DNA from: Anaerolineales bacterium
GTDB taxonomy: Bacteria > Chloroflexota > Anaerolineae > E26-bin7
Reading direction: 5' to 3'
Length of the DNA: 52,576 nt
Assembly: GCA_004377365.1 (NCBI GenBank)
Contig: SOHZ01000648.1
Span: forward strand, 1 to 52,576
Part shown: piece by piece, positions 1,288 to 45,473 of the stretch
Layout of the letters: each line of letters begins with the position of its first letter
How positions within the stretch are numbered: position 1 is the stretch's first letter
Position numbers and translations under genes: made by a program
The notes under the pieces: model-generated
The model's input: only the letters and a program-made list of their open reading frames with translations
Databases searched by the model: none
Told to the model about the DNA's origin: nothing

Positions 1288-1406
1288 GTCATCTGTCCAT
1301 GCTAACTGCTAACTACCCCCTTAATCCCGCCTTGGGCGGAATGCCGGTGGTAGGAAATTGGTCTTCCGCACAGCACTATAACAAACTGTCAACGAGGAGG
1401 ACACCA

Positions 1407-1781
1407 ATGGCTGAATTGACGCGCAAAGATGTGATCCTGATCCTGGGGATGGGAGGGGCAAACCCCAGGCTCGCCGGGGTGGATCTCAGCGAGTTGGACC
1501 TGCAATACTTTGATTTTCATGGGGCCAACCTGACCAAAGCCAACCTGAGCCAGGCCGACTTGAGCCATGCCAACCTAAGCCGGGCCAACCTGAGGGAGGC
1601 CGACCTGCGCTGGGCCAAGCTGAGCCATGCCAACCTCAACGAGGCAGACCTGAGCGGAGCCGACTTTAGTGGAGCCGACCTGAACGGTGCCGACCTGAGT
1701 CAGGCCATCCTGGAAAGGACCGATCTGGGCCGGACCATCCTGAAAGGAGCCATCATGCCCGACGGCACCCAACACGTGTAA
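1407..1781 (+). CDS. pentapeptide-repeat protein
   Basis: ATG at 1407 is preceded by GAGGAGG. The 124 aa are dominated by tandem A(D/N)LxX units ('ANLTKANLSQADLSHANLSRANLREADLRWAKLSHANLNEADLSGADFSGADLNGADL'). The track ORF starts at 1299, but that upstream part has no RBS. Confidence 0.8.
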   Translation: MAELTRKDVILILGMGGANPRLAGVDLSELDLQYFDFHGANLTKANLSQADLSHANLSRANLREADLRWAKLSHANLNEADLSGADFSGADLNGADLSQAILERTDLGRTILKGAIMPDGTQHV

Positions 1782-1833
1782 GGGTGAGCGGTTGACCGTC
1801 GGGTGACCTGCGGCGCAATAAGGAGCAAAGACT

Positions 1834-2961
1834 GTGCGCATCGGCATCAACGCCTTTTACCTTGGCGCGGTCACAACGGGCAGTGGACAATACATCAACC
1901 ACCTCATCAGCCAGTTGACGCGACTAGGGGGTGAAAGCGAATACGTACTTGTTAAGAATACAGAATATAGAATGCAGAATACTTGCATCCTGCATCCTGT
2001 CTCCACGCCTTTTGACTCAATCAGCGAGAATCTGGCCAAGCTCTGGTTTGAGCAGGTTTCTTTCCCTTGCGTCTGTCGCCGTCAAGGCATTGAACTAGCC
2101 CATGTCCCTTACTTTGCTTCCCCCCTTTTCCCCACCACGCCGACGGTGGTCACCGTCCACGACCTCATTCCTATGCTCCTGCCCACCTACCGGGGCTCGA
2201 TTTTGGTGCGCCTCTACACCCGCCTGGTGGCCGCCGCAGCCAGGAAGGCCGACATGGTACTGACCGACTCTGAGGCATCCAAACAAGACATCATGCGCCT
2301 GCTGGGCATCCCAGCCGAGCGCGTGCGCGTCATCTACCTGGCTGCTGACGACATCTATCAACCGATTCTGGACGACCACCGCCTGTCTGCGACCTGTCAA
2401 AAGTACGGCCTGCCCGAAAGCTATCTCCTCTACCTGGGTGGGTTCGACCAGCGCAAGAACGTGCCGACTCTGCTGAAAGCCTTCGCCCAATTGGTAAAAG
2501 ATTCAAAAGCATTTCTGGTGATAGCTGGTCGGCTGCCGGAAAAGGGTTCAGATTTTTTCCCCGATCCACGGCCTATCGTCCAGGAGTTGGGAATAGGAAA
2601 ACGGGTGGTTTTCACCGGCTGGGTGCCGGAGGAGGACAAGCCGGCCCTCTACAGCGGGGCGCGGGCGCTCGTCTTCCCTTCTCTCTACGAAGGCTTCGGT
2701 CTGCCGCCGCTGGAGGCCCTGGCCTGCGGCACGCCAGTCATCGCCTCCAATCGGGGATCGCTGCCAGAAATCGTGGGGGACGGGGGCCTGCTGCTGGAAC
2801 CGGACGACGTGGAGAGGCTGGCAGAGGCAATGGAGAAACTGCTGAACGATGATACGTTGTGGGGAGATTTGCGGCAAAAGGGGTTAGCCCACGCGTCCAG
2901 GTTCAGTTGGGAGAAGACGGCACAGGAGACGTTAGCGGTGTATCGAGAGATAGGGGAGTGA
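1834..2961 (+). CDS. glycosyltransferase family 1 (GT4-like)
   Basis: GTG start after AAGGAG. The C-terminal 'FPSLYEGFGLPPLEALACGTPVIASNRGSLPEIVGDGGLLLEP' is the GT-B E-x7-E type nucleotide-sugar binding region. Confidence 0.85.
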   Translation: MRIGINAFYLGAVTTGSGQYINHLISQLTRLGGESEYVLVKNTEYRMQNTCILHPVSTPFDSISENLAKLWFEQVSFPCVCRRQGIELAHVPYFASPLFPTTPTVVTVHDLIPMLLPTYRGSILVRLYTRLVAAAARKADMVLTDSEASKQDIMRLLGIPAERVRVIYLAADDIYQPILDDHRLSATCQKYGLPESYLLYLGGFDQRKNVPTLLKAFAQLVKDSKAFLVIAGRLPEKGSDFFPDPRPIVQELGIGKRVVFTGWVPEEDKPALYSGARALVFPSLYEGFGLPPLEALACGTPVIASNRGSLPEIVGDGGLLLEPDDVERLAEAMEKLLNDDTLWGDLRQKGLAHASRFSWEKTAQETLAVYREIGE

Positions 2962-3004
2962 AGTCGGTCACTTCTCAAATCTGGCTTCGTACGCGTTCGG
3001 GGGT

Positions 3005-3091
3005 GTCATTGCGAGGAACGAAATGACGAAACAATCTCCACCGTTGAGAGCAATTGCACCTTGGGGATTGCTTCGCTCCGCTCGCAATGAC
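3005..3091. repeat. palindromic intergenic repeat element (arms gtcattgcgag / ctcgcaatgac)
   Basis: 11-nt terminal inverted arms at 3005-3015 and 3081-3091, plus internal complementarity. The element translates to the 'CHCERSEAIP'-type artefact ORF. There is one copy in this window. Confidence 0.6.
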
Positions 3092-3136
3092 AGATCCAGA
3101 GGTGGTCTTGCTCATTTTCGACCTCCACCTGAGCGA

Positions 3137-3423
3137 TTACCTGGCTTCTTCCTCTGCTAACTCTTCCCGCTTGGCAGAGAGATAAGTAGAAACTGAGGTC
3201 TTTTTGCCTCTGAGCATTCCACGGGCAGTTTCGATAGGGTCTTCGGAGAGGGGCACAACGATCAAGTTTTGCCTGCGTCAATCCATCGCAGCTTAGCCTT
3301 GGGCCCAATCTGATATTTTCGCCTGAGGGCAAGAGGGATCTCTGTACGTCCCTGACGCGAGACCACGGTAATGGCGCCAGTCTCCGCTGAATAGATCGTT
3401 GCAGTCTCCTTCAGCTTTGTCAT
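3137..3423 (-). pseudogene. AbrB/SpoVT (MazE-like) domain protein, frameshifted
   Basis: The ATG at 3423 follows an AGGTGA RBS. Frame A reads 'MTKLKETATIYSAETGAITVVSRQGRTEIPLALRRKYQIGPKAKLRWIDAGKT*', with its stop at 3262-3264. The expected last beta-strand and tail, 'LIVVPLSEDPIETARGMLRGKKTSVSTYLSAKREELAEEEAR*', continues in another frame to 3137. The frame break lies at an A4 run (tttt at 3267-3270 on the plus strand). Confidence 0.5.
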
Positions 3424-3485: not shown

Positions 3486-4601
3486 TTGCGCGTCTTGATG
3501 ATTTCCAAAGCCTGCATCGTAGGCGCTTATCAGAAAAAGCTGGAAGAACTGGCCCGGTTCGATGACGTGGAGCTGACGGTCATCGTGCCGCCCTATTGGC
3601 GCGACGAGCGGGGGGTGATGCCCCTGGAACGGGTGCACACAGCAGGCTATCGCTTCATTGTCGAGCCCATGCTGCTCAACGGCCACTTCCACCTGCACTT
3701 TTACCCCGGCCTGGGGAAGCACGTCCGACGTCTTCAACCAGACATCGTCCACATTGACGAGGAGCCTTACAACCTGGCCACCTTCCAGGCTATGCGCCTG
3801 GCCAAAAGGGTAGGGGCCAAGGCCCTCTTCTTCACCTGGCAAAATCTGAAGCGCAGCTATCCCTTTCCTTTCAACTGCATTGAGAGCTACAACCTGGAAA
3901 AGGCCGACTATGCTATCGCTGGCAACCAGGAGGCGGTGGAAGTGTGGCGGGGAAAGGGATATAAAGGACCCATCAAGGTAATCCCACAATTCGGAGTGGA
4001 TCCAGAAATCTACAAAACAGACAAATCTCAAATCTCAAATCTCAAATCTCAGTTTACTATTGGTTACGTGGGACGCTTGGTGGAGGAGAAGGGAGTGCAG
4101 GTGTTGCTGCACGCTGTGGACGGACTGGCGGGGGAGTGGCGTCTGCACATTCTGGGCAGCGGTCCCATACAATCCCAGTTGGAGGCTTTGGCCCGGCAAC
4201 TGGACCTCGTTGAACGGGTGAGCTTTGAATCGCCCATCCCCTCCGCTCAAATGCCAGCCTTCTACCATCAATTGGACACCCTGGTCTTGCCCTCTCTGAC
4301 CCGGCTCCACTGGAAGGAGCAATTTGGACGGGTGCTCATCGAGGCCATGGCTTGCGGGGTACCCGTGGTCGGTTCGCGCTCAGGTGAGATCCCCCACGTC
4401 ATCGGCCAGGCCGGGCTGACCTTTACCGAGGGTGATGTCCAGGAGCTCAGAGCCAGGCTTTCTCAATTGATGGACGATCCCGATCTCCGTGCAGACCTGG
4501 CCAAGCGAGGACGAGAGCGAGTGCTGGCCCACTACACCCAGGCCAGGATCGCTACGGCAACCTACGAGGTCTATCGGCAGATAGTTAAAATCTGGGGGTA
4601 G
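3486..4601 (+). CDS. glycosyltransferase family 1 (GT4-like)
   Basis: TTG start giving 'MRVLMISKA', typical of GT4. The C-terminal 'LPSL..EQFGRVLIEAMACGVPVVGSRSGEIPHVIG' is the GT-B donor-binding motif. Confidence 0.85.
   Translation: MRVLMISKACIVGAYQKKLEELARFDDVELTVIVPPYWRDERGVMPLERVHTAGYRFIVEPMLLNGHFHLHFYPGLGKHVRRLQPDIVHIDEEPYNLATFQAMRLAKRVGAKALFFTWQNLKRSYPFPFNCIESYNLEKADYAIAGNQEAVEVWRGKGYKGPIKVIPQFGVDPEIYKTDKSQISNLKSQFTIGYVGRLVEEKGVQVLLHAVDGLAGEWRLHILGSGPIQSQLEALARQLDLVERVSFESPIPSAQMPAFYHQLDTLVLPSLTRLHWKEQFGRVLIEAMACGVPVVGSRSGEIPHVIGQAGLTFTEGDVQELRARLSQLMDDPDLRADLAKRGRERVLAHYTQARIATATYEVYRQIVKIWG
4021..4051 (+). repeat. heptanucleotide tandem repeat (tcaaatc x4, first copy acaaatc) inside the GT4 CDS
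   Basis: Read directly: acaaatc tcaaatc tcaaatc tcaaatc tca. It encodes 'DKSQISNLKSQ', the linker between the two Rossmann halves. Confidence 0.9.
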
Positions 4602-4656
4602 GCAAATTTCGAAAACTGGCCGAAAAATTATGGCGGATTTCTTCAGTTCATTCTCG

Positions 4657-5028
4657 TTACACCAACTTGCTCAAATCCGCTGCTGCGCGCTTCATATCCA
4701 AGAAGAGCATACCCAGCTTGGTGTCTTTGCGGGCCAACACAGTAAGCACAGCCTCTTCGCCTACATCTAAAAGGAGGACGTAGCCGTCGTCGCCTCGGAT
4801 GTAAACCTGATCCAACGTTCCGCGTCCCAACTCTACAGCGATGCGCTCGCCCAGGGAAAGCATAGCCGCCGACATAGCCGAGACCCGGTCCTCCTCCACA
4901 TCAGGTGGCAGAGCCGAGGCCATAATCAGACCGTCAACGCTAACCAAAGCGGAAGCCTCAACGTCCGTCGAACTGGCCTGCAGGTCCCTCAAGCGATCCG
5001 TCAACTGCTCAGTCCTCGATTTCGCCAT
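4657..5028 (-). CDS. Roadblock/LC7 (MglB-like) domain protein
   Basis: 123 aa. 'VEASALVSVDGLIMASALPPDVEEDRVSAMSAAMLSLGERIAVELGRGTLDQVYIRGDDGYVLLLDVGEEAVLTVLA' matches the Robl_LC7 pattern. An AAGGAG RBS lies upstream. Confidence 0.8.
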   Translation of the reverse strand: MAKSRTEQLTDRLRDLQASSTDVEASALVSVDGLIMASALPPDVEEDRVSAMSAAMLSLGERIAVELGRGTLDQVYIRGDDGYVLLLDVGEEAVLTVLARKDTKLGMLFLDMKRAAADLSKLV

Positions 5029-5175
5029 CGCCTTATATCTCCTTTTCCCTATGGCTGACTATAGCCAAAGTACTAGATTTAGCCCTTCGCTGCGCTCAGG
5101 GAACTTTTGCTCGGGCATAGGTAACGGGTGACGTGCAGAAAAGGGGCAACTGCACCATCTCCTCTCACTCGTTCT

Positions 5176-6081
5176 TCACCCTGGCCCAATCGCATCATGA
5201 TGGTCCTCATCACTCACTCCTTGCTGCTTACAGAACCCCGGAGGATCAGAGTCCAGAGTTTTCAGAGCCTGTCCTGAGCCCCGTCGAAGGATCGAAGGGT
5301 CCGGAGAGGAGCCGGGGGCCATCACTACCCGAAAACCGATGTTCTCGTAGGGGATGTCCGGGTTGAGCTTGGAGCGGCAGGCACAGCGGACGAAACACTC
5401 ATCGTGGCTGAACGCCCCGCCACGCAACACACGGGGGATGCTGTCCAGCGCATCCAGGTCCTCGCGGCCACCGGCCGAATCGTAAGGGGACTTGAACGAT
5501 GGCTTTTCCTGGTTCTTTCTCCACAGGCTACGCGTCCACTCCCACACGTTGCCAGCCATGTCCAACAATCCGTAAGGACTGGCCCCTTCGGGGTAGGCCC
5601 CCACCAGCGTGGTATCCCCCTTGCCGCCCTCTTTACTGTTGCATCGCTCCGCGTCCCACCGGTTGCCCCAGGGATAGATGCGCCCATCGCTGCCCCGCGC
5701 CCCCTTCTCCCATTCGGCTTCGCTGGGCAGGCAGTAGGACTTGCCGGTGACCTCGGCCAGCCAGTGACAGTAAGCTATAGCGTCATGCCAAGAGACCTCA
5801 ACCACGGGATGCTCCTCTTTGCCTCTTGGTGGTTTCCCATCTTCCCAATGTTTCGGCTGCTTGTGGCCGATAGCCTGCACAAAGGCAGCGTACTGAGCGT
5901 TGGTCACCGGCGTCTTGGCCAGGTAGTAGTCGGGCAGGTACAGAGTATGTTGGGGCTGCTTATCATCATCCGCATCTTGGTCCAAGCTGGGATCGCTGCC
6001 CATGAGGAACTCGCCAGCGGGGATGAGGACCATCTCCGGCTTGAAAGGCTGAGAGCGCTCCATGATGGCTTTTTCGATCAT
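5176..6081 (-). CDS. soluble FGE-sulfatase (SUMF1-fold) domain protein
   Basis: 'MVLIPAGEFLMGSDP..QPQHTLYLPDYYLAKTPVTNAQYAAFV..CLPSEAEWEKGARG..YPWGN..RVLRGGAF..IGFRVVMAP'. No TM helix. The last ~50 codons run into a REP-like element. Confidence 0.85.
   Translation of the reverse strand: MIEKAIMERSQPFKPEMVLIPAGEFLMGSDPSLDQDADDDKQPQHTLYLPDYYLAKTPVTNAQYAAFVQAIGHKQPKHWEDGKPPRGKEEHPVVEVSWHDAIAYCHWLAEVTGKSYCLPSEAEWEKGARGSDGRIYPWGNRWDAERCNSKEGGKGDTTLVGAYPEGASPYGLLDMAGNVWEWTRSLWRKNQEKPSFKSPYDSAGGREDLDALDSIPRVLRGGAFSHDECFVRCACRSKLNPDIPYENIGFRVVMAPGSSPDPSILRRGSGQALKTLDSDPPGFCKQQGVSDEDHHDAIGPG
5262..5300. repeat. REP-like element copy A (cctgagc / gtcgaagg motif family)
   Basis: 'cctgtcctgagccccgtcgaaggatcgaaggg' shares the cctgagc and gtcgaaggg/cccttcgac motifs with the copies at 37829, 38350 and 45427. 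Confidence 0.6.
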
Positions 6082-6296
6082 GCTTCCTTCCTTCTGCCTC
6101 CTTATCCGATTTTGTCAGCATTCGTCCTCTTCCGAGGATTTCTCCTCAATTATTCTCATCTATCCCAGCCGCCAGGGCGAGCAAGGTCAGGCGAGCGTCG
6201 CCCTGGGGTAGCACGGCCACCGGCAGCGGGCAGAGCCGGTCCGGGTGACCACACATTCGGTGCGGACCTGGGTGTCGCCGTTTGTCCTGTCACCGG

Positions 6297-6521
6297 CTAC
6301 CTGTGAGCCAGGGCGACGCCGACCATCAGCGCCAGGAGCAACAGGATGGCCAGAACGGCCCGCACGCTACGCGCACGGGCTTGCTCTCGCAGAAAGTAGT
6401 AGGGGGCACGCCGGGACTGGATATAGGCCCGGACGGCCACTACAGCCGCCAGCAAGAGCGCTACCAGGCACCCGCCCAGGATCCAGGGGACACAGGCAGC
6501 AGGCAAGGCAAAGTTCACCAT
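6297..6521 (-). CDS. small two-TM membrane protein (hypothetical)
   Basis: 74 aa with two hydrophobic helices ('WILGGCLVALLLAAVVAV', 'AVLAILLLLALMVGVAL'). A GAGGGA RBS is present. It lies directly downstream of the HTH gene. Confidence 0.45.
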   Translation of the reverse strand: MVNFALPAACVPWILGGCLVALLLAAVVAVRAYIQSRRAPYYFLREQARARSVRAVLAILLLLALMVGVALAHR

Positions 6522-6555
6522 TCATTCCCTCGAGTTCTATGCTAATCGGTCGCTG

Positions 6556-6756
6556 CTAGAACCAACAGGCTTGCTTCTCCTGGTACCAGCGGTTGAACAT
6601 GAACCGCTCGAACTCGCCAAGCTTGATGCGGTAAACGCCCCTTACCTGCCTGGCCTGGAGCTCGCCGCGTCGAATGAGCCGACGCACTGTAGATACATTG
6701 ACACCCAGCCGCTCGGCGACGTCTCTGGTGGTCAAATAGTCTCTTTCATCCATCAA
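6556..6756 (-). CDS. excisionase/MerR-type helix-turn-helix DNA-binding protein
   Basis: 66 aa. 'LTTRDVAERLGVNVSTVRRLIRRGELQARQVRGVYRIKLGEFERFM' matches the excisionase-family HTH_17 pattern. Confidence 0.7.
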   Translation of the reverse strand: MMDERDYLTTRDVAERLGVNVSTVRRLIRRGELQARQVRGVYRIKLGEFERFMFNRWYQEKQACWF

Positions 6757-6941
6757 TCATCTCCACTCAGAGCCTCAATCACTGCGTCTACGTCTGGACA
6801 AACGGTAAACGAGGAGGTGAGGCCGGCAATGCGCAGGGCACACTGGACAGAATCAGTGCTTTCCCGGTTCGCGGTTCCCGTCTCTATGTTTTGACTGCAT
6901 TCGTTCAATAAAAGCGTTGCTTGCGGGAAAGACGCCACCAC
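6753..6941 (-). CDS. hypothetical small protein, translationally coupled to the HTH gene
   Basis: 62 aa ORF whose stop overlaps the HTH start (ATGA at 6753-6756). No family recognised. It overlaps ORF 6853-7107 in another frame, so a frameshifted single gene is possible. Confidence 0.3.
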   Translation of the reverse strand: MVASFPQATLLLNECSQNIETGTANRESTDSVQCALRIAGLTSSFTVCPDVDAVIEALSGDD

Positions 6942-7107
6942 CGTTCTCTATGTCGATCAAGATCAAATCGGCGACCATCTTCCGGTTCGATGGCGTATCC
7001 CGGGGACGGATCTTCCAACGGAAGTCGCCCCCGATTGTGTCCCGTATCCATGTGTCAAACTCTTCTCTGCTGCCAGTCAAGTGTTTACTCATGCCCGCGT
7101 TTTTCAA
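6853..7107 (-). CDS. hypothetical protein
   Basis: 84 aa ORF ('MSKHLTGSREEFDTWIRDTIGGDFRWKIRPRDTPSNRKMVADLILIDIENGG...'). No family recognised. Confidence 0.3.
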   Translation of the reverse strand: MKNAGMSKHLTGSREEFDTWIRDTIGGDFRWKIRPRDTPSNRKMVADLILIDIENGGGVFPASNAFIERMQSKHRDGNREPGKH

Positions 7108-7233
7108 ACCCCCTTTGTTTTACTCGATCATTTGCAAAATGCGGTTGGCAATATCGAGGTATGCCTTAGCAATGTTGCCCTCTGGATAACTAAACCTGGC
7201 CTTTGGATTCGTCTTGCGGCCAGTTCCCGCTCA

Positions 7234-7710
7234 TTAGCGGCCACCGCCGACTCGTTCCACGAGTTCGTCAAAGCGCCGGCGCAGCGCTGCTGCTCGCTGG
7301 TCCGCTTGTCGATATTCAGGGGGGCGTGTGGTTGGCAAACGCGCCTTGAGTTCCTGCAACAGGTGGATTGCCTCTTGATGGTTGGTTCCGTCCTGGTAGA
7401 GCGCCTCAATCGAGTCCAGAGCCTGCTCCCAGTCGCCAGAGACGATTTGTTGCATGATCTTGTGCCGCAGTTGCCGGTGTCTTCCTTCGCGCTCTTGCTG
7501 TGCTTTTTCCCTGATCACCTGCTCGGCCAGCGCCTCTTTCGCCTGGCGATGAGCCTCCTCCACCTCCGTGTCCGACAACTCTTGCTGCCGCAGAGTGTAG
7601 CGCAGCCAGCTACAAAGCTGGAGCGCGCGTCGCCACTGCTCGTCGGCCATCGCTATCGCCAACTCTTTTTTCCAGATCTCTATCTGTTCCCCGGCCGTCG
7701 TTTCTGTCAC
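7234..7710 (-). CDS. hypothetical charged/alpha-helical protein
   Basis: 158 aa. It is Glu/Arg/Gln-rich with probable coiled-coil segments ('EEAHRQAKEALAEQVIREKAQQEREGRHRQLRHKIMQQ'). It runs in the same direction as the flanking genes. Confidence 0.5.
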   Translation of the reverse strand: MTETTAGEQIEIWKKELAIAMADEQWRRALQLCSWLRYTLRQQELSDTEVEEAHRQAKEALAEQVIREKAQQEREGRHRQLRHKIMQQIVSGDWEQALDSIEALYQDGTNHQEAIHLLQELKARLPTTRPPEYRQADQRAAALRRRFDELVERVGGGR

Positions 7711-7976
7711 GTTGTCTTACCCCCTCTACCAGAATTGTGTGGCGTCACACACTTTTACGCCTCTTGCTCGTTTACCCCGAATTCCGTCGCCGCGCTCGAT
7801 AACGAGTGAGCATGCACGGCATGGACTTGATCTTGGTCATAGGATAGCGATGCTGCCAAAGCCCCCGGTAACACAGAGCCGGGTTCGTGCACCAACCGAT
7901 GGAGGCGATCTTCCAGGGATTGTAGTAACGGCACGTGCCGCACCGCTTTATGGCTAACTGCTCTCTGTCTTTTTCT

Positions 7977-9239
7977 CTAGGCAGCCTGTTCCGCCAAGCG
8001 GTCCAGGTATCGCCGGATGGCGTCCTTGTATTCGCTGTATTCCGGCTCTCTCTCCAGGATGGTGAACTTGATCCATAGGGCAATGATTGGGTCGGTGATG
8101 TAATAGCGGTGGCCCTCCCGACCGATGAGGTCAAAGTCGGCCAGGCGCTTCAGATAAGAGCGCACCTCTCCCGGCGTTCGCTTGAGCGGAGCGGCGATCT
8201 CGGAGAGGGTCTGTTTGCCCCCTTCAGCCAGCACCAGCAACACCGAGCGCAACGTGGTCCTGCCCCGGGCCTCGGCCAACGACGTCTCTAGTCGGTGCTG
8301 GCAGTACTGGTAGATCCGCCCTTCCCGCGTCAGGATCTCCTCATAGATTGCCCGATCCAGGACATCACCGCCGGTTTTGTCCTGATCCAGCCGGCGCATG
8401 GCGGTCGTCAGGCAGTTCAGGTAAAAGGGGTGACCAGAGGTGAATTCGAACAGTCGAGCGATGGTCTCTTGCGTCAGCAGGTGCTCCGGTAGGCTCTTGC
8501 GGCAGAACTCGGCCGTGGCCGCCCGATCAAAGGGGGGCACAGGTACAACCTGGAACTGGTCAAAAAGAGGGGACGTCGCGGATTGCACGGTCCGCTTCAC
8601 CATGCTGGTGTTCGAACTGGCCACAATATAACCCACTTCGATCTGCCGGCTGAGGGCCTGGCCCACGACGCTTAGCATATCCTTGATGTGCGGAAAGCTG
8701 TCAAGCTGGGTGACATTATGGAACTCGTCCAGGATGACGAGCGGTTTCCTGCCCGTGTGCTGGGCCGTCTGTTCCAGGCAGGACAGAGTGATCTCTAGCA
8801 GCAGACGTTCGTCGGGCCGATCTTTCTCCATTTCTCGTGTCACCTGCCGGGCGGTGGCGACGATGGTCTCTTCCCGCGTCTGGTCAACGACTGTTAGCAA
8901 ACTGGCCGCGTCGAGTACCCCGCCCGATTGCTCCACCTGCCGGCCATCAGCCTCGACGAACGAATGGCCGATGGCCGCCAGCAAGCGGACGGCAAAGACA
9001 GAGGGCACAGAAAGGTTGCGGGCCACGTTGAAATACACGGGCACCAGGGGCGAATGGCGTTCGTGGAGGAGATCATCGGCGAATCGCTGAACGATCATTG
9101 TCTTGCCGATGCGCCACTGCCCGACCAGGGCCAGGTTCACGCCCTCGCCCTGCTGGATCAGATCGGCGTTGCGGTGCAGCGCCGCCAGAATCTCGTCCCG
9201 GTCAGTAAAGAGGGCACGTTCGTGTTCTCTGAGCAACAT
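7977..9239 (-). CDS. AAA+ ATPase (archaeal-ATPase/ORC-Cdc6-like) with C-terminal winged-helix domain
   Basis: Start refined to the ATG at 9239, preceded by GGGAGGTG. Walker A 'GQWRIGKT', Walker B 'LVILDEFHNV'. The C-terminus 'TLSEIAAPLKRTPGEVRSYLKRLADFDLIGREGHRYYITDPIIALWIKF' looks like a wHTH (DUF234-like). Confidence 0.75.
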   Translation of the reverse strand: MLLREHERALFTDRDEILAALHRNADLIQQGEGVNLALVGQWRIGKTMIVQRFADDLLHERHSPLVPVYFNVARNLSVPSVFAVRLLAAIGHSFVEADGRQVEQSGGVLDAASLLTVVDQTREETIVATARQVTREMEKDRPDERLLLEITLSCLEQTAQHTGRKPLVILDEFHNVTQLDSFPHIKDMLSVVGQALSRQIEVGYIVASSNTSMVKRTVQSATSPLFDQFQVVPVPPFDRAATAEFCRKSLPEHLLTQETIARLFEFTSGHPFYLNCLTTAMRRLDQDKTGGDVLDRAIYEEILTREGRIYQYCQHRLETSLAEARGRTTLRSVLLVLAEGGKQTLSEIAAPLKRTPGEVRSYLKRLADFDLIGREGHRYYITDPIIALWIKFTILEREPEYSEYKDAIRRYLDRLAEQAA

Positions 9240-9312
9240 ACCAGCACCTCCCTTTCGCCTCGTGTCAGAGCTCCAACGCATGTTCTACGCAGTCAAACGT
9301 GGATCTGGGAAG

Positions 9313-9378
9313 TTAGGCCAATTGGCCTAACTCTGCTAATTATAGTATAATTCTGGAAATTATGCCAATTGGCCTAAC
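9313..9378. promoter_or_regulatory. paired palindromic operator-like sites flanking an AT-rich -10 region
   Basis: A perfect 18-bp palindrome, ttaggccaattggcctaa, lies at 9313-9330. A second copy, gccaattggcctaac, lies at 9364-9378. 'tatagtataat' lies between them. The region is immediately upstream of the ATPase-wHTH gene. Confidence 0.4.
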
Positions 9379-9477
9379 CTGGCTGGAGGAGAATAACGGA
9401 AATGGAGCGACTCAGGTATGGGAAGAAAGAGACATAGGACATGTCACACAGACGAAGTGTTCCCCATCCGCTACTAT

Positions 9478-9825
9478 GGGACGGTTGTCTGCCTGGGGGT
9501 GGGCAGGGGTATCTGGGCTATCGCGCCGCTGGCCAAAGACCTGAGGGACGCCGGCAACCGGATCGTCTCTATCCTCGATGCCGGCGACGAGTTGGATCTT
9601 TTGTGGGAGGAGGCCATCCGGATCGTCAGCGATGAAGCGATTGTCTCTGCTCTGGATGGGTCGCGGGGAGAGCCCCTCCACGCGGGCCATCCTCTCTTTG
9701 AGCGACTGAGCTGGGGCGACGTCAACCTGGTCGTGGCCGTTGGGCCGATGGAAGAAGTCAAACGGCTGGGATTCATCGTCGAGGCGCAGGGATGTGCCTT
9801 CGTCGCGCTGCCGGCGGAGCGTTAG
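9478..9825 (+). pseudogene. fragment of an NfnA/PyrK-like FAD/NAD(P)-binding oxidoreductase (NAD-binding domain only)
   Basis: 'GTVVCLGVGRGIWAIAPLAKDLRDAGNRIVSILDAGDELDLLWEE...DGSRGE...VNLVVAVGPMEEVKRL' resembles the 'GGGvGiaP...G..v..i.g.r....l......TdDGS.G..G....DlvvaiGP..Mm' pattern. The N-terminal FAD domain and the C-terminal Fe-S segment are missing. Confidence 0.45.
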
Positions 9826-9912
9826 TGCGAGGAGTTAGATGTCTTGACTGCAATAGGCAAGAACCCACCACAGGCGAAGAGAGAAGGTATGAAAACCGTC
9901 GTCGCCGGCGCG

Positions 9913-10190
9913 TTGGGCGGGTGCTCATCGAGGCCATGGCTTGCGGGGTGCCCGTGATTGGTTCGCGTTCAGGTGAGATCCCTCACGTCATCGGTCAGGC
10001 CGGGCTGACCTTCACCGAGGGTGATGTCCAGGAGCTCAGAGCCAGGCTTTCTCAATTGATGGACGCCCCGGCTCTCCGTGCAGACCTGGCCAGGCGAGGG
10101 CGAGAGCGGGTGCTGGCTCATTACACTCAGGCCAGGATCGCCGCTGAGACCCACGAGGTGTACCGCCAACTGCTGAACCGGACCGAATAG
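9913..10190 (+). pseudogene. 3'-terminal fragment of a GT4 glycosyltransferase, a duplicate of 4324-4601
   Basis: 'RVLIEAMACGVPVIGSRSGEIPHVIGQAGLTFTEGDVQELRARLSQLMDAPALRADLARRGRERVLAHYTQARIA' is near-identical to the C-terminus of ORF 3486-4601. Over the first ~230 nt the identity is roughly 90% by eye, and the last ~30 nt diverge. No N-terminal GT domain lies upstream. Confidence 0.75.
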
Positions 10191-10217
10191 GGATTGAGGT
10201 CTAATGCAGTTCAGTTA

Positions 10218-10350
10218 AGCGCCGTCGGTTGAGTAGTGAAACGTATCGAAACCACGACGCGGCTCATGCAATGCGAAATCCATTACAAAAGCCGCTCGCG
10301 TGGCCTCGATACAGTCTTCCGCTACGCTCCAGACCTACTCGGCCGACGCT
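10218..10350. repeat. long nested-hairpin repeat element (family with 25432-25601)
   Basis: Outer arms are agcgccgtcggttgagtag / ctactcggccgacgct. Inner arms are cgtatcgaaaccacgacgcggc / gccgctcgcgtggcctcgatac. The signature words gagtag, cgtatcga, tcgatac and ctactc are shared with the second copy. Confidence 0.6.
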
Positions 10351-10479: not shown

Positions 10480-11469
10480 TTACGGCGTGGTCTCGGTGGG
10501 TACCGTGCTGGGCGCAATGGTGGCCCCGGACATGGTCTCACCGGGCGTCAGATTGAGGAAGGGAACAAAGCTGCCGGGAGGCATGATGCCCCAGGTGACC
10601 CTGCCCTGTGGGTCGCTCAGGGATTCCACAAATTGCAGTTGGATGATGGCCGGGTACTCTGCCAGGGCTTCACCCTTAACCTGGATGGCTCCTGCCTCCG
10701 CGTCCGCCAGCAGTTTCACCTTTTCCGCATCGCCCCTGGCTCGTTCGATGGTAGACTGGGCCTCACCTTTGGCCATCTCGACCTGGGCCTGAGCGCGATA
10801 AACTGCCTGCTCAGCCTTGTGCTGCTCCGTGATGATGGTCTCAGCCTCGATCTGTTTCTGCTCCACGGCCTGCCTGTAATCCTCGGTGAACTCTATCTTG
10901 CGCAGGCCGAAACTGTCGAGGACGATTCCCTTCTCGGCAAAAAGGGGCGTGAGCAACTCTTCAAATTGATCCTGGACTGCCTGGATGTTCCCCGTGTAGA
11001 GGTCGAGGGCCGCGTATTCCTTGGGAATGTTACGGGCCAGGATGCGGCTGTGGAACTTTACCACTTTCTCCACCACATCTCGCTCGTCACCGATGTTGTT
11101 GGCGATCCAGTCCACCCTCGCCGGGTCAATGCGGAAGCGAATGGAATACTTCAGGATGATCTGCTGCCCGTCCGCGGTGGTGGTATCCGTGGGAAAGTCC
11201 ACGTACTCAGCCTGTGACTCCGCCTCGCCAACGGTTTGGTAGATGATCTCCTGGGTGCGATAGCGCTCCACCCCCTCAATGAGAGGCATCTTCCAGTTCA
11301 GGCCCGGCTGCATGAGCCTTCCCGTCACTGCTCCGAAGCGAGTGACTACTCCCACTGTGCCGTATTGGATCTGGACATAACTTGAGGATGCCAGGATCAG
11401 AACCAAGAACACCACCCCGGCGACGATCAGCACACTGCAACTGGGCAACGCAACCTGTTGCTTTCTCAT
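10480..11469 (-). CDS. SPFH/Band-7 (prohibitin/HflK-C-like) membrane protein
   Basis: N-terminal TM helix 'VLIVAGVVFLVLILA'. 'VVTRFGAVTGRLMQPGLNWKMPLIEGV' and the coiled-coil 'EQKQIEAETIITEQHKAEQAVYRAQAQVEMAKGEAQ' are typical of Band 7. Confidence 0.8.
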   Translation of the reverse strand: MRKQQVALPSCSVLIVAGVVFLVLILASSSYVQIQYGTVGVVTRFGAVTGRLMQPGLNWKMPLIEGVERYRTQEIIYQTVGEAESQAEYVDFPTDTTTADGQQIILKYSIRFRIDPARVDWIANNIGDERDVVEKVVKFHSRILARNIPKEYAALDLYTGNIQAVQDQFEELLTPLFAEKGIVLDSFGLRKIEFTEDYRQAVEQKQIEAETIITEQHKAEQAVYRAQAQVEMAKGEAQSTIERARGDAEKVKLLADAEAGAIQVKGEALAEYPAIIQLQFVESLSDPQGRVTWGIMPPGSFVPFLNLTPGETMSGATIAPSTVPTETTP

Positions 11470-11675: not shown

Positions 11676-12392
11676 CTAAGGAGACGAGGCCGGAGTAGGG
11701 GTAGGCGGCGGGGGTGCCTCGACCACAGGGATGGAAGCGAGAGACCCTCTGACCTGGGCGTAGGAGACGGAAACCCAACCCCGGCCGATGGTGCCGGCTG
11801 GGTAAACGATTTGCAGCCAGGAGCTATCAGCGTTCTTGCCCACAATCTCCACCGCGTCGTTTTGCTGCAGTTGGCCGGCAACAGGGTAGTCGGTGCCTGG
11901 CCCCCTCCTGACGTTCAGGACCCCGGTGGTGATGGCAGCCCAAGGGGCGCCCGGCGGCAGAGTCACACTGGTCGGGGTGGTAGGAGCAGCGGCTGTCCCC
12001 TCCTCAATGACGTTAATGGTAATCGTGGCCGGGTCGCTGACCCGTCTGGCGGCATTGTAGGCCTTGACCGTCACGCTGTGGCTGCCGAGGACGGTGGCTG
12101 TCCACTCCTGGGTGACGCTAAAAGCGGGCTGCTGTTGAGAGCTGACGTCGGAGTGGACCAGCGAGCCGTCCACCCACAGTTCGACCCGGGTCACACCCTT
12201 GGCGTCGGTGGCGCTGGACTGGATGGCGACGGTTTCGCCTACCTTGACCTGGGTGCCGCTGGCCGGGGAGAGGATCGCCGCTGTTGGCTTTGTGCCGCCC
12301 CCAAGGCCGGGCAGTTCGCAGGCCAGAATGCCTGCCCCAAAAAGTAAGAGGACAGCGAGGGCCGCTATTCCCCGGAAGCGGAAGGGGAACAT
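11676..12392 (-). CDS. putative lipoprotein with Ig-like domain and bacterial SH3 domain
   Basis: Start refined to the ATG at 12392, after GGAAGGAGA. Signal/lipobox 'LLLFGAGILAC'. The Ig-like segment 'SPASGTQVKVGETVAIQSSATDAKGVTRVELWVDGSLVH...VTVKAYNAARRVSDPATITINV' is homologous to the first ectodomain of the two FHA proteins. The SH3b-like segment is 'GVLNVRRGPGTDYPVAGQLQQNDAVEIVGKNADSSWLQIVY'. Confidence 0.7.
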   Translation of the reverse strand: MFPFRFRGIAALAVLLLFGAGILACELPGLGGGTKPTAAILSPASGTQVKVGETVAIQSSATDAKGVTRVELWVDGSLVHSDVSSQQQPAFSVTQEWTATVLGSHSVTVKAYNAARRVSDPATITINVIEEGTAAAPTTPTSVTLPPGAPWAAITTGVLNVRRGPGTDYPVAGQLQQNDAVEIVGKNADSSWLQIVYPAGTIGRGWVSVSYAQVRGSLASIPVVEAPPPPTPTPASSP

Positions 12393-12460
12393 CTTTTCAC
12401 CGTCTCCTTCCCTGGTCAAGCCTTATTTGCCGCGCCGAGCCTTCGAAGGCGGACTTGGCC

Positions 12461-14527
12461 CTACGGCCTCTCAATGCGAGGCTCAACCCACACCGCCCAG
12501 TCCTGGCTGGGAGACCCGTTAGCCAGTAGTCTTAACGAGACATAGGAAGACCCCACAAAGATAGAGGGAAACTCAAAAGAGACATCCACAAGTGAGTTAT
12601 TATATGGCTTAACCTGGGTCCACGCCGTACTACCCCCGTTAGTGCCAGCTGTCACCATAAATCTCACATTGCCGGCGGCAGCATTCTTGAGGAATCCCAC
12701 CTTGGCCACGAACCTATCACCTGCTTGAATAGGCGAGGGCAAGTGGTACTTGCCTTGAATCCATCCGTCATTAACCCACTGAGGATGGGTTTCAAGCGCT
12801 TTCGGCCAGGTGCTCCCATCCTCAAGCTCCATACCGCCGACCGCTATGACGAAACCTTCATTGTCACCAGTGCCTCCTGGACACGGAAGCGAACCTGCCC
12901 CACTTGTCCAATTGGCATCACACATGTGGTCCATGAAATCGTATACCACCGTGGGGCCCGCAGGCGTTACATTAACCGTGACCGTCTTGTCCTCCGTGCT
13001 GGAATCCAGCTTGACTACGTGCAGGGTGTAGGTGGTAGTGGAAGCAGGACAAGTAGATCCCGACCAATGGGGACCGGTCACACCAGAGTTGGCGTACTCG
13101 GCACCGCTCAGGGTAGCTGTCTGCACGTTCTCAATGTGCACCCTCAGGGTTGTGCAATTCCCTGCGGTGATGGTATCGTCATCCACCGTGAACTCAATAA
13201 CCGATGAGGGAGGCGGCGGTTGGGTCGGCGTCGCCGTCGGAGTCTCCGTCGGAGTCGGAGTCGCCGTCGCCAGTGCGGGCACTACAATCTGCACGCTACA
13301 GGTCTGGCCAAAGACCTGCCCGTCGGGACTCTTCATCCGCCAGTGGCCGGTGTAGGTGCCCGGAGCGCTGGGCGCATACATGGTCACCCCAATGTCCACG
13401 TTGGCCCCCGCTGCGGTGGCGGGCACAGCCTGGGAAGGAGCAGCCCCCATCTGGTCGCCGGACACAAACACCCACGTGTACCCGCTCTCCCAGGGACAAC
13501 TGCCGCTGTTGCGGATGCGCCAAATCTTATCAACCTGTGTTCCAGGTGAGAAGACAGTCCCATCGGGCACGGTCACGTCGGCCACAAAGGCCGCATCCAG
13601 AGTGCAACCGGTGGGCGTGGGGGGGGGTGTCCCGGTGACGACGACAGGTGTCCCGGTCGCGGTGGGCGTACCTGGAGCCAGGGTGGATGTCACTTCACCT
13701 GGCCCAGGTGTGGTAGCCCCAGTGACGTTGACGGTGATGGCCTCCGGCTGGCTGACCCCTCCAGCAGCATTATAGGCTTTGAGCATCAGAGTATAGGTGC
13801 CAGGGGCCGACGCCCGCCAGGACTGCCGGGAGATGAAGGGCGATTGCCCCTGCGGGTTGGGACTGACGTCAGAGTGGTAGAGAACCCCATTGACCAACAG
13901 CTCGACACGGGTCACCCCTTTGGGATCGGTCGCCGTGACCTGGACAATGACCTCCTGTCCCACCGGCACCTGGCTGCCACTGGCAGGCGAGTTGATGACC
14001 ACCGTTGGCACTCCCCCGGCTATCTTCTTGCCCCGCTGGGTGTAAAGGTAGGCTCCAACGGCAGCCACGACGAGCAAGACGACAACCGCCGCGCCCAAGA
14101 GTCCCAAGGCCATCCACGACAGGCCCCCTGGCCCCTTCCTGGCCTCTGCCGGTGGGGCTGGCGGCGGGGCATAAGCTGGCGGCCGGGGGGCCGGCCCGAC
14201 TGCGGTCGGGTAAGCCCCCGCTACTGCCGGGCACTGAAAACCCAGTTGGGCCTTGCCCAGGCCGATGGTGTCGCCGTCGCGCAGGGCCTGGGCACCGGTG
14301 ACGCGCACACCGTTGACAAAGGTGCCGTTGGTGCTGCCCAGGTCCCTGATGACTGGCTGACCTCTTTCCCAGGTGATGCTGGCGTGGCGGCGAGAGACCT
14401 CAGAGTCAGTGACGACCACATCGCTGCCCACCACGCGGCCAAGAATGATGCTGTCCTTGGACACGGAAAAACGCTGGCCACGCTGGGGGCCTTGTTGTAC
14501 GGTTAAAGTAATAGAGGGTTGCTGCAT
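12461..14527 (-). CDS. FHA domain / TM / Ig-like / NBR1-like Ig / C-terminal unknown-domain protein (paralog 1)
   Basis: 688 aa with an AAGGAGG RBS. FHA segment: 'GRVVGSDVVVTDSEVSRRHASITWERGQPVIRDLGSTNGTFVNGVRV'. TM helix: 'WMALGLLGAAVVVLLVVAAVGAYL'. NBR1-like segment: 'AAFVADVTVPDGTVFSPGTQVDKIWRIRNSGSCPWESGYTWVFVSGDQMG..YAPSAPGTYTGHWRMKSPDGQVFG'. Confidence 0.8.
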   Translation of the reverse strand: MQQPSITLTVQQGPQRGQRFSVSKDSIILGRVVGSDVVVTDSEVSRRHASITWERGQPVIRDLGSTNGTFVNGVRVTGAQALRDGDTIGLGKAQLGFQCPAVAGAYPTAVGPAPRPPAYAPPPAPPAEARKGPGGLSWMALGLLGAAVVVLLVVAAVGAYLYTQRGKKIAGGVPTVVINSPASGSQVPVGQEVIVQVTATDPKGVTRVELLVNGVLYHSDVSPNPQGQSPFISRQSWRASAPGTYTLMLKAYNAAGGVSQPEAITVNVTGATTPGPGEVTSTLAPGTPTATGTPVVVTGTPPPTPTGCTLDAAFVADVTVPDGTVFSPGTQVDKIWRIRNSGSCPWESGYTWVFVSGDQMGAAPSQAVPATAAGANVDIGVTMYAPSAPGTYTGHWRMKSPDGQVFGQTCSVQIVVPALATATPTPTETPTATPTQPPPPSSVIEFTVDDDTITAGNCTTLRVHIENVQTATLSGAEYANSGVTGPHWSGSTCPASTTTYTLHVVKLDSSTEDKTVTVNVTPAGPTVVYDFMDHMCDANWTSGAGSLPCPGGTGDNEGFVIAVGGMELEDGSTWPKALETHPQWVNDGWIQGKYHLPSPIQAGDRFVAKVGFLKNAAAGNVRFMVTAGTNGGSTAWTQVKPYNNSLVDVSFEFPSIFVGSSYVSLRLLANGSPSQDWAVWVEPRIERP

Positions 14528-16604: not shown

Positions 16605-16747
16605 CGTCACCTTCTCCTTACACAGTACACAAACCAACGCTTCTACTCATAAATCCCCCAACCATCTCTAGTCCTCGTTATGGGGCAGCGATGGACAGGC
16701 GAAAACTGATGATGGGGGAACGTGGTCAAAATCAATGGCTTGCTCTC

Positions 16748-21492: not shown

Positions 21493-21714
21493 GATCTCAC
21501 AGGCCCTACTACGACTACTATTTTAGTATAACATCCAGGGTTAAGTTTACCTTTATATTTCTTTGAGAAGCAACTCTAACTTCTCCAATTGTATCACCAA
21601 TGAGTTTCTCAGGAAAGCTCGCACAGAAAAGTCTGGACTCACAGGTTCACAAGGGAATCTTTGGGCAGAGAGTGTAATCACAATTCTATCAGAAACCTTT
21701 CCTGTTGTCAACAG

Positions 21715-45426: not shown

Positions 45427-45473
45427 CTCTTCGACTATCCCTTCGACCTTGCTCAGGGCAGGGCTCAGGGCAG
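45427..45473. repeat. REP-like element copy D
   Basis: tcttcgactatcccttcgaccttgctcagggcagggctcaggg. It belongs to the same motif family as copies A-C and overlaps the last codons of ORF 45465-45980. Confidence 0.6.

Follow-up and report, generated by a model that had tools for sequence, protein, structure and literature searches.

FGE/FGS domains are frequent sensor or effector modules in the conflict systems of multicellular bacteria (PMC7159879). The best fold matches of the ATPase considered here are archaeal ATPase_2 structures (PDB 2qen and 2fna, with target-normalised TM values of 0.71 and 0.65), followed by Orc1/Cdc6 bound to DNA. At the sequence level, homologues in Nitrospirota and Desulfobacterota (26-32% identity) are ATPase_2-wHTH-Mrr_cat fusions, adjoined in about 5 loci by a 1711-aa Eco57I-type methylase. 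The window that we analysed, which is the whole 52,576-nt stretch of contig SOHZ01000648.1 from an Anaerolineales bacterium, encodes this ATPase at the head of a minus-strand run of eight genes, which a preliminary description had put forward as a candidate for one novel NTPase-centred module. All of the reading frames listed there are present where it placed them, and the run and its domain calls are correct, with the exception of the ORF at 6753-6941. The genes are not tightly packed, and are separated by gaps of 266, about 140, about 96, 34, 215 and 147 nt.

Comparing the set with related arrangements, of which there were about 20 distinct ones, we divided it into three parts. All of these arrangements come from genomes of one Anaerolineae clade, mostly on short contigs, so that absences are partly uninformative. 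On balance, and with little more than even confidence, we regard the run as composite, made of three units that differ in their history. Of these, unit A (9378 to about 6094) would be an operon passed on by vertical descent and confined to one sediment Anaerolineae clade. The idea of an NTPase-centred set survives to the extent that such a set recurs across genomes; the FGE-fold gene and the type-B Roadblock gene lie outside it.

The ATPase, its partners and a divergent promoter

The ATPase (7977-9239, minus strand, 420 aa) is an AAA+/STAND-like protein of ATPase_2 type, with a Walker A motif (GQWRIGKT), a Walker B motif (LVILDEFH) and a Pfam ATPase_2 score of 35.3 bits against a cut-off of 33.2; its start, MLLREHE, is also the one picked by public gene calls. 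Pfam HTH matches on residues 345-389 agree with an AF2 model (pLDDT 80) that ends in a helix-turn-helix and a beta-hairpin, and the C-terminus is accordingly predicted to be a winged helix, as had been proposed. A faint similarity to TniB/AAA_22 can also be seen. About 85 clusters of homologues are 68-92% identical to the protein, after which identity falls to 32% or less. Purifying selection is indicated by dN/dS for the ATPase (0.14-0.32), hel158 (0.17-0.59), HTH_17 (0.26-0.44) and Roadblock.

The partner most constantly seen with the ATPase is hel158 (7234-7710, minus strand, 158 aa), an orphan TPR-like protein adjacent to it in about 14 distinct arrangements, and the helical character noted earlier is borne out by an AF2 model with six helices (pLDDT 86). 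This model has no significant fold match, with TPR-like matches weak only, and neither hel158 nor any of its 129 homologues, all of 150-180 aa, has a Pfam family; indeed, a profile run against 1.84 billion representatives returned just 22 matches, all from its own family. Between the two genes lies a 266-nt spacer (7711-7976, minus strand) that occurs only in the window, L093, L027 and partly L038, other loci having 25-35 nt at this position. It holds a Cys-rich ORF that lacks a start codon (dN/dS 0.6), and shows no excess of structure over shuffled sequence (z=+1.65).

Beyond this pair, orf84, HTH_17, a membrane peptide and a type-A Roadblock gene join in varying combinations: HTH_17 follows the ATPase in 6 distinct arrangements, and the 79-aa product of orf84 in 5, plus a fusion (P0130) in which its homologue is joined in frame to hel158. 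The real gene among the small ORFs is orf84 (6853-7092, minus strand, 79 aa counted from ATG), conserved in L010, L026, L030, L032/33 and L093, with six members in its 90% cluster and dN/dS of 0.25-0.38 against distant relatives versus about 1 against close ones; some copies carry frameshifts. The overlapping 62-codon ORF (6753-6941, minus strand), also proposed as a gene, is probably not coding, since its matches are mostly confined to the orf84 overlap or show near-neutral dN/dS (about 1 in three of four; the fourth, L026, gives 0.35 on 39 gapped codons). Neither of two public annotations calls it, and its supposed ATGA coupling to the next gene is in fact a TGATG junction. That next gene (6556-6753, or 6756, minus strand, 65 aa) encodes an excisionase/MerR-like DNA-binding protein, and its assignment as an excisionase-type HTH is confirmed by Pfam HTH_17 (E=1.3e-13) and TIGR01764 matches. 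The membrane peptide (6297-6521, minus strand) has the two hydrophobic segments expected of a two-TM protein (maximum Kyte-Doolittle value 2.7); all 10 members of its 90% cluster are exactly 74 aa long, it is 90.5% identical in L093 and a remnant in L044, and no such peptide follows HTH_17 in L003, L014 or L028.

Upstream of the ATPase lies a symmetric divergent promoter-operator (9312-9378, assigned to neither strand), in which two 18-bp palindromes, TTAGGCCAATTGGCCTAA, at 9313-9330 and 9360-9377 (2 found versus 0.02 expected) enclose back-to-back TATAAT boxes, with the -35-like hexamers inside the palindromes. In consensus-only promoter and terminator scans, to be read with the caveat that Chloroflexota promoters are poorly known, the region 4400-10300 showed no other sigma-70-like promoters than these two (scores 11/12 and 10/12). 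The architecture is kept in 17 of 18 aligned related loci, the first palindrome of the eighteenth (L010) being N-masked, and the half-sites covary symmetrically. On the other side, a plus-strand gene (9418-9825, 135 aa) encodes only the NAD-binding domain of the PyrK/sulfide-dihydroorotate-dehydrogenase-like family (NCBIfam PRK06222, E=4e-14, profile positions 94-198 of 281), and is conserved, unchanged in length and position, in L008, L011, L012, L030, L042 and L093, at 66-82% amino-acid identity. The recurrent flanks include, besides this PyrK-like protein, a B12-binding-domain protein, octopine-DH-like, CarD-like and S1-domain proteins, and Band7.

The FGE-fold and Roadblock genes

The FGE-fold protein (PF03781; 5176-6081, minus strand, 301 aa) matches FGE-sulfatase at E=2.9e-56, and shares 39.5% identity with the FGE domain in a TIR-FGE protein at 22-1287. 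The remark that its cysteines are arranged non-canonically was right, because a PDB alignment to human FGE places Ser at the position of catalytic Cys336, with the Cys341 position retained. Its membership of the set does not hold: it lies next to the ATPase in no other locus compared, an intact copy is found in this genome only (its 90% cluster consists of a single member), and the nearest relative, L093, retains only scraps of it, namely a 16-codon leader. Its 3' tail (5263-5339) enters a short dispersed repeat that has other copies. The 5' region (6082-6153, minus strand), with the ribosome-binding string GGATAAGGAGGCAGA, precedes FGE here and type-A Roadblock in relatives; in L044, the sequence homologous to 6089-6153 runs directly up to the start of Roadblock-A, and in L087, after an identical string, hel180 and Roadblock-A overlap by ATGA. 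L093, whose ATPase is 91% identical, is colinear with window positions 9378-6094 at 92.4% nucleotide identity, and past 6094 it has Roadblock-A instead of FGE, then Roadblock-B at 96% identity. These comparisons point to a lineage-unique insertion or replacement of the FGE-fold gene, and on the two genomes compared, the event may be either a replacement here or a loss elsewhere.

The Roadblock/LC7 gene of the window (4657-5028, or 4657-5083 with its upstream region at 5029-5083; minus strand; Robl_LC7 E=3.7e-19) is of type B, which has dozens of homologues at 89-97% identity versus just 64-69% identity to the cluster-linked type A. Since it has its own upstream region, with conservation of the upstream 58 nt in L089-L092, and stands solitary in unrelated contexts at those loci, it is an independent unit, rather than the member of the set that it was taken for. 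Among about 20 arrangements, a Roadblock gene is linked downstream to the ATPase in only 4, and the linkage is indirect, given that L087 has hel158 and Roadblock-A without an ATPase nearby. The reported lack of an adjacent small GTPase extends to the entire window, in which tblastn found no MglA-like match.

Competing explanations and proposed role

The preliminary description placed the genes in a repeat-bounded context, and a 256-nt direct repeat (89% identity) does bracket the block. Together with the HTH_17/TIGR01764 'excisionase family' domain and the TniB/AAA_22 similarity mentioned above, this could suggest that the segment from about 4580 to 9912 is what remains of a mobile element that integrated here with a replacement 3' end for its target gene and an excisionase-type HTH. 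We consider this extremely unlikely. The first copy (4324-4579, plus strand) is the 3' end of an intact GT4 glycosyltransferase gene (3486-4601), and the second (9913-10168, plus strand) comprises the final 86 codons of a GT4 paralogue that is truncated, homology being absent upstream of this copy, so that the repeat is no mark of mobility. Integrase, recombinase and transposase genes are absent; moreover, the same genes occur elsewhere without repeats, in synteny and with divergence typical of vertical descent. The survey found no near-identical copies of the block at other sites and no intact att-like ends, IMG/VR yielded no relatives on viral contigs, and plasmid relatives are haloarchaeal, at about 25% identity only.

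Also very improbable is a single novel NTPase-centred system for defence or signalling made up of all eight genes, in which FGE would be the sensor and Roadblock would regulate the NTPase. The genes are co-directional under a single sigma-70-like promoter on that strand, FGE/FGS modules are known from conflict systems, only 3-8 kb separate the set from a TIR-FGE protein and a GT4-conflict glycosyltransferase, and the position of the FGE gene after a ribosome-binding site internal to the operon makes its expression together with the operon probable in this genome. Against this stand the isolated FGE gene, the independent Roadblock gene, the purifying selection and syntenic chromosomal context of the core, and a limited survey in which ATPase, FGE and Roadblock do not recurrently co-occur; the neighbourhood comparison upheld the ATPase-hel158 pair and not the FGE-fold gene. 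PADLOC gave no significant match for the gene set, consistent with the earlier statement that it corresponds to no named system. Defence by the core without FGE, Roadblock-A included, deserves more weight, yet we still think it unlikely. Under this explanation, an abortive-infection or similar system would derive from ATPase-nuclease restriction-like proteins, in which the effector would be either the TM peptide or some unknown partner, and HTH_17 would be an AbiEi-like regulator. The Mrr-type nuclease of distant homologues, some beside a methylase, would be compatible with a defence ancestry; PADLOC adds weak similarities to PDC-S27 and Avs1b and a resemblance between HTH_17 and the HTH domains found in mad1 and AbiEi, and gene content 3' of the ATPase is variable. 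However, neither a nuclease nor any other effector domain is present here, the TM peptide is limited to the closest relatives, the ATPase is 68-92% identical clade-wide with dN/dS of about 0.15, and the conserved operators and syntenic, housekeeping-type flanks are unlike defence islands; these features, with the lack of viral or close plasmid relatives, tell against the suggested defence role. Less probable again is that the ATPase, hel158 and the small genes are neighbours through inherited synteny only and have no functional link, although the comparison genomes come from one clade and the flanking genes are syntenic too: where flanks are reshuffled the ATPase-hel158 pair stays, with its 25-35-nt gap, and both the P0130 fusion and the hel180/Roadblock-A overlap in L087 argue for more than shared descent.

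Under the composite reading that we favour, the ancestral operon of unit A would have ended with a type-A Roadblock gene, whose place behind its ribosome-binding site may have been taken by the FGE-fold gene in the lineage of this genome, at a rearrangement hot spot with a dispersed repeat. The divergent promoter would drive the ATPase, then hel158, and then the 79-aa protein, HTH_17 and the two-TM peptide. Most likely, the ATPase would bind the palindromes through its winged helix and thereby autoregulate both divergent promoters; the same palindrome/-10/palindrome layout is present at loci that have the ATPase alone, without HTH_17. Alternatively, a factor encoded elsewhere could bind the palindromes, or these, being located in 5' UTRs, could act as RNA hairpins instead. 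The hel158 and 79-aa proteins may serve as an adaptor of the ATPase, and a dimer of Roadblock, the gene of which shows translational coupling to hel158 in L087, may serve as a platform or regulate the nucleotide state, the ATPase replacing the missing small GTPase.

The conserved core belongs to the archaeal-type ATPase_2 family as a variant specific to its lineage, and has orphan partners. Judged from its sequences, its role would most likely be that of an autoregulated, Orc1/Cdc6-like, ATP-dependent DNA-binding switch, and unit A looks like a housekeeping-type regulatory module rather than an immune system.

Composition of the gene run

Neighbourhood comparison shows the gene run to be composite, and the system put forward in a preliminary description shrinks to a core consisting of the ATPase, a 158-aa helical protein (hel158), a 79-aa protein, an HTH_17 protein and a two-TM peptide, with a Roadblock gene of type A (defined below) as an ancestral member. 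The minus-strand ORFs listed in that description are all present and its domain calls hold (ATPase_2 with winged helix, all-helical 158-aa protein, HTH_17, two-TM peptide, FGE fold and Roadblock/LC7). We gathered 93 loci through 12 exact-protein look-ups and a scan each of GTDB and of metagenomes, and mapped the window proteins onto them with tblastn; the counts that follow refer to approximately 20 distinct arrangements. The hel158 gene (7234-7710, minus strand; all-helical in its AF2 model) follows the ATPase gene in ~14 of the ~20, mostly with a gap of 25-35 nt. Downstream lie the excisionase-type HTH_17 gene (6556-6753, minus; Pfam and NCBIfam) in 6 arrangements, the gene for the 79-aa protein (6853-7092, minus, counted from its ATG) in 5, not counting a fusion described below, and a Roadblock gene in 4 (comparison loci L012, L044, L087 and L093), whereas the FGE-fold gene was detected by tblastn in none. 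Outside the window the 74-aa two-TM peptide (6297-6521, minus; assigned by hydrophobicity) was found only in L093, the closest relative, with a remnant in L044. The proposed conservation of neighbours was consequently borne out for the ATPase-hel158 pair, but not for the FGE-fold gene.

Values of dN/dS were 0.14-0.32 for the ATPase, 0.17-0.59 for hel158, 0.26-0.44 for HTH_17 and 0.17 for Roadblock. The flanking genes also recur, in varied order and on either flank (encoding B12-binding-domain, octopine-dehydrogenase-like, 135-aa PyrK-like, CarD-like, S1-domain and Band7 proteins), suggesting a chromosomal region that is vertically inherited yet locally reshuffled. In the window, a Band7 gene (10480-11469) and a Big_7/SH3 gene (11676-12419) adjoin tandem paralogues with FHA, Big_7 and N_BRCA1_IG domains (12461-14527 and 14676-16637, both minus).

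Searches of Pfam, NCBIfam, PADLOC and PDB sequences returned nothing significant for hel158 (which has no assigned family), the 79-aa protein, the TM peptide or a start-less ORF in the spacer that precedes hel158. A fold search with hel158 gave weak TPR-like matches only (every E>0.1), and a profile search of 1.84 billion representatives recovered no remote relatives. The spacer itself (7711-7976, minus) is a 266-nt insertion separating the ATPase and hel158 genes in the closest relatives only, and carries a Cys-rich frame (KRCGTCRYYNPWKIASIGWCTNPALCY) that lacks a start codon. A structured RNA at this position was ruled out (z=+1.65), and an Rfam scan of the window found only two tRNAs.

Two overlapping small ORFs had been proposed downstream of hel158, one of which is a real gene. 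The 79-aa protein is kept in L010, L026, L030, L032/L033 and L093, has six members in its 90% cluster, and in P0130 is fused in frame with the helical protein. Comparison with distant copies gives a dN/dS of 0.25-0.38 and comparison with close ones ~1, and a stop or frameshift interrupts some copies, such that selection on this protein looks uneven. The second ORF (6753-6941, minus) is matched elsewhere mostly within its overlap with the 79-aa gene, has a dN/dS near 1 in 3 of 4 matches and appears in neither public annotation; it is probably non-coding, and we treat it as such.

Roadblock types and the FGE-fold gene

Dozens of homologues share 89-97% identity with the window's Roadblock/LC7 gene (4657-5028, minus; PF03259, E=3.7e-19), a degree of conservation above that of the ATPase, which reaches 92% with its best relative. 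In four loci (L089-L092) with copies that are 90-94% identical, and with which the 58 nt upstream of the window gene are conserved, the gene is solitary, lying between epimerase and unknown genes on one side and a class-Ib tRNA synthetase on the other; none of these loci has an ATPase, FGE or GTPase in the vicinity. Cluster-linked Roadblocks are only 64-69% identical to the window protein; those of L044, L087 and L093 (its first copy) share 64-76% mutual identity and an N-terminal MSKSRxDLM, and on this basis are grouped as type A, the window gene being type B. The L012 Roadblock is truncated and its type ambiguous. A Roadblock gene as a member of the set is therefore supported insofar as some Roadblock occurs in 4 of the ~20 arrangements, but not for the type B copy in the window.

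No MglA-like GTPase was detected in the 52.6-kb window (tblastn with a Myxococcus xanthus MglA query, E<=1), in agreement with the earlier remark that no small GTPase is adjacent, nor did the neighbourhoods of L012, L044, L087, L089, L091 and L093 contain a small GTPase. MglA/MglB modules and actinobacterial conservons likewise pair a Roadblock/LC7 protein with a P-loop NTPase encoded together with it or close by, but there the NTPase is a small GTPase, whereas here it is an AAA+ ATPase. Since orphans make up ~44% (328/749) of prokaryotic MglB homologues (PMC4316618), a Roadblock gene without a GTPase is not unusual in itself.

The FGE-fold gene (5176-6081, minus) encodes a full-length PF03781 domain (E=2.9e-56), as in the formylglycine-generating enzyme (SUMF1) and ToxD-like proteins, its best PDB sequence match being ToxD (7spq, E=1.7e-33), followed by FGEs. 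The cysteine arrangement had been described as non-canonical, and alignment to human FGE chains bears this out, as Ser replaces Cys336 and Cys341 is retained; one half of the Cys pair with which true FGE binds copper is consequently missing, and no sulfatase gene lies near. The protein is alone in its 90% cluster, and shares just 39.5% identity with the FGE part of a TIR-FGE protein (22-1287), which means that the gene is not a recent local duplicate. A blastn search of the gene against the window, as a check for a DGR template, found two short matches only, one of 60 nt to a dispersed repeat and one of 48 nt to a paralogue, and no reverse transcriptase was present in the subset of the window's ORFs that was scanned.

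Three loci together indicate that the FGE gene occupies the slot of a type A Roadblock. The L093 locus, whose ATPase is 91% identical, aligns colinearly with window 9378-6094 (92.4% nucleotide identity), and colinearity stops 13 nt ahead of the FGE start codon; beyond the break lie a truncated type A Roadblock, the first 16 FGE codons with an early stop, a 75-aa Zn-ribbon-like ORF, a type B Roadblock (96% identical) and the convergent glycosyltransferase also seen in the window. In L044 the start codon of the type A Roadblock directly follows the sequence homologous to window 6089-6153. In L087, which lacks an ATPase nearby, the hel158 homologue hel180 and the type A Roadblock overlap by ATGA, and the string ahead of this overlap (GGATAAGGAGGCAGA) is identical to that ahead of the window FGE start. 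The Zn-ribbon-like ORF (L093 7703-7930, …DPLVCERCGAEMW…) sits between the FGE leader remnant and the type B Roadblock, and its 3' third persists, interrupted by one stop codon, at window 5074-5198, right after the FGE stop, which makes this a hot spot of rearrangement.

At its 3' tail the FGE gene passes into a short dispersed repeat, which recurs in partial form at several other places in the window. This GC-rich element (core CCTGTCCTGAGCCCCGTCGAAGG; 5263-5339, also 37829-37923, 38352-38443, 45440-45462 and 21608-21640) translates as ...RRGSGQAL / FDGAQDRL...; one copy supplies the C-terminal end of the FGE ORF, and another truncates the type A Roadblock in L093. An apparent FGE 3' fragment in L093 was rejected as an FGE remnant, being itself a copy of this repeat; what truly remains of the gene there is the 16-codon leader plus the intergenic region downstream. 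The reading of the whole run as one eight-gene system is thus supported only for the core, which recurs, and the claim of an eight-gene novel defence system is misleading, given that the neighbourhood comparison makes the FGE gene and the window Roadblock bystanders.

The ATPase and its relatives

The ATPase gene (7977-9239, minus) encodes an ATPase_2 protein matching PF01637 at 35.3 bits (cut-off 33.2) over residues 25-289, with Walker A GQWRIGKT and Walker B LVILDEF corresponding to GxxxxGK[ST] and hhhhDE; the Walker K, T and D residues are kept throughout the family. Its AF2 model (pLDDT 80) shows a C-terminal winged helix, and the top Foldseek matches are 2qen and 2fna (E=1e-10; target-normalised TM 0.71 and 0.65), followed by Orc1/Cdc6, ORC subunits and STAND proteins. 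Archaeal-type ATPase_2 proteins (PABY2304, PDB 2qen; SSO1545, PDB 2fna) are also its sole PDB sequence match, sharing an AAA+/STAND-like P-loop core, Walker A and B, a helical lid and the C-terminal winged helix, and are as functionally undefined as the window protein. However, the latter is only ~17% identical to them, is bacterial and confined to one Anaerolineae clade, and differs in that hel158 is its fixed orphan partner and its palindromic promoter is conserved. The additional C-terminal DUF234/nuclease-like domain common in the ATPase_2 family is absent, the protein ending past the winged helix at residue 420; a literature search on DUF234/PF01637 yielded nothing but unrelated papers, on DUF2345 and rotary ATPases. 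Orc1/Cdc6 initiators share the AAA+ and winged-helix layout of an ATP-dependent DNA-binding switch, and the third-best fold match, 2qby, is a structure in complex with origin DNA, yet TM is only 0.45-0.50 without sequence similarity, and the context here is bacterial and a promoter rather than an origin.

A word-indexed search recovered ~85 clusters of homologues at 68-92% identity and then a single match at 24%, and the GTDB matches are from Anaerolineae or Anaerolineales MAGs throughout. Collection scans add relatives at 21-32% identity in Nitrospirota, Desulfobacterota and others, of which the nearest are ATPase_2-wHTH-Mrr_cat fusions of ~555 aa from Nitrospirota and Desulfobacterota. These are 26-32% identical over the ATPase and winged helix and belong to the same Pfam families, but carry a C-terminal restriction-endonuclease-like domain that the window protein lacks, and none of hel158, the 79-aa protein, HTH_17 and Roadblock is encoded next to them. 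Together with the ATPase_2 fold matches, the Mrr_cat domain of these distant relatives makes the window ATPase a nuclease-less, clade-specific variant of the ATPase_2 family. An antisense shadow-ORF cluster that ORF clustering produced near the distant homologues was discarded, since it is actually the C-terminal Mrr_cat domain of longer proteins. In ~5 loci a 1711-aa Eco57I-type methylase/restriction protein adjoins the Mrr_cat-fused relative, directly upstream of the ATPase-nuclease gene (L049 3634-10615; also L052, L053, L056 and L065), and the two genes may form a restriction-like system.

The divergent promoter and the proposed role of the core

The intergenic region between the ATPase gene and a divergent PyrK-like ORF contains two 18-bp palindromes (TTAGGCCAATTGGCCTAA; 2 found, 0.02 expected), which flank back-to-back TATAAT boxes (9312-9378). 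This divergent, perfectly symmetric pair comprises the only sigma-70-like promoters in 4400-10300, with the -35 hexamers inside the palindromes. The layout is kept upstream of the ATPase in 18 aligned loci (L010 being N-masked over the first palindrome), including loci that have neither HTH_17 nor hel158, and across the ATPase orthogroup half-site changes are symmetric (G..C to T..A). Such symmetric palindromes are the classic signature of a dimeric-repressor site. Given that they travel with the ATPase alone, its winged helix is, by inference, the simplest candidate binder. Each palindrome also lies within the 5' UTR of the opposite transcript, and an RNA-level role is therefore possible. The PyrK-like ORF (9418-9825, plus; 135 aa) is a NAD-binding domain alone, similar to PyrK and sulfide dihydroorotate dehydrogenase, and resembles a gene fragment. 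However, an ORF of the same length lies divergent from the ATPase in at least 6 other loci, and this constancy of length and placement makes it probable that the domain functions on its own and is co-regulated with the ATPase.

A defence role for the core is disfavoured. The nuclease fusions among its distant relatives leave such a role conceivable, but sequence conservation, synteny and the lack of an effector argue against it. No component protein had a significant system-level match in PADLOC-DB v2, as anticipated from the preliminary description, the best matches being PDC-S27 (E=2e-6, partial) and generic HTH matches to mad1 and AbiEi. STAND-type conflict domains (repeat sensor, or nuclease, TIR, protease or pore-former effector) are absent from the eight proteins, and similarity to Avs1b is 16-21 bits and confined to the NTPase helical region. 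In the NTP-dependent conflict systems described by Kaur et al. (2020, PMC7159879), as in the window set, a P-loop NTPase is found together with an FGE-fold module, and the lineage is of a filamentous, multicellular type. In those systems, however, the FGS domain is fused C-terminally to vWA or effector domains and linked to MoxR, iSTAND or DGR components, none of which is seen here, whereas the window FGE gene stands by itself and is not kept alongside the ATPase. The nearby TIR-FGE protein fits their theme. It is part of a trio at 22-2961 (plus), with the TIR-FGE fusion (22-1287), a pentapeptide-repeat protein (1299-1781) and a GT4 glycosyltransferase (1834-2961) matching the Pfam 'GT4-conflict' model; it looks like such a conflict system, and a better defence candidate than the ATPase set. 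Two nuclease-type genes, a Mrr_cat nuclease fused with a long TPR array (27529-29493, minus) and a NERD-domain protein (49483-50166, plus), may also be defence-related.

Carriage of the run on a mobile element was rejected. The repeat behind the repeat-bounded context of the preliminary description (4324-4579 and 9913-10168; 256 nt, 89% identical) is a gene fragment, namely the last 86 codons of an intact GT4 gene against those of a 5'-truncated paralogue, and its homology ends with the coding end. No integrase, recombinase or transposase was found among the ORFs between the copies, and the block occurs in other genomes without such repeats; the flanking repeat is consequently not a mobile-element mark. 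Moreover, IMG/VR holds no relatives, and plasmid relatives are limited to haloarchaeal proteins at 25% identity. Between two GT4 genes, at 2975-3160, ORF translations (…IASGAKQSPR…, …CHCERSEAIP…, …FVPRNDT…) presumably reflect a dispersed palindromic repeat, of which they are typical.

The core is a variant of a known, uncharacterised ATPase family with orphan partners. It would act as an autoregulated ATP-dependent DNA-binding switch, for which hel158 and the 79-aa protein may serve as adaptor, and Roadblock, to which hel158 is translationally coupled in one lineage (L087), might be a nucleotide-state regulator. That a Roadblock/LC7 protein, acting through this adaptor, regulates an Orc1/Cdc6-like ATPase-wHTH switch at a two-operator divergent promoter, instead of a small GTPase, is in our judgement improbable; if true, bacterial Roadblock regulation would extend past GTPases. 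What remains is a clean lineage-specific operon on the large and functionally blank ATPase_2 family, with an unusually well-defined regulatory site, two orphan partners and a recurrent but loose Roadblock link. With ~44% of MglB homologues being orphans (PMC4316618), an ATPase-linked orphan Roadblock, known here from genomes of an uncultured clade, would be a useful lead.
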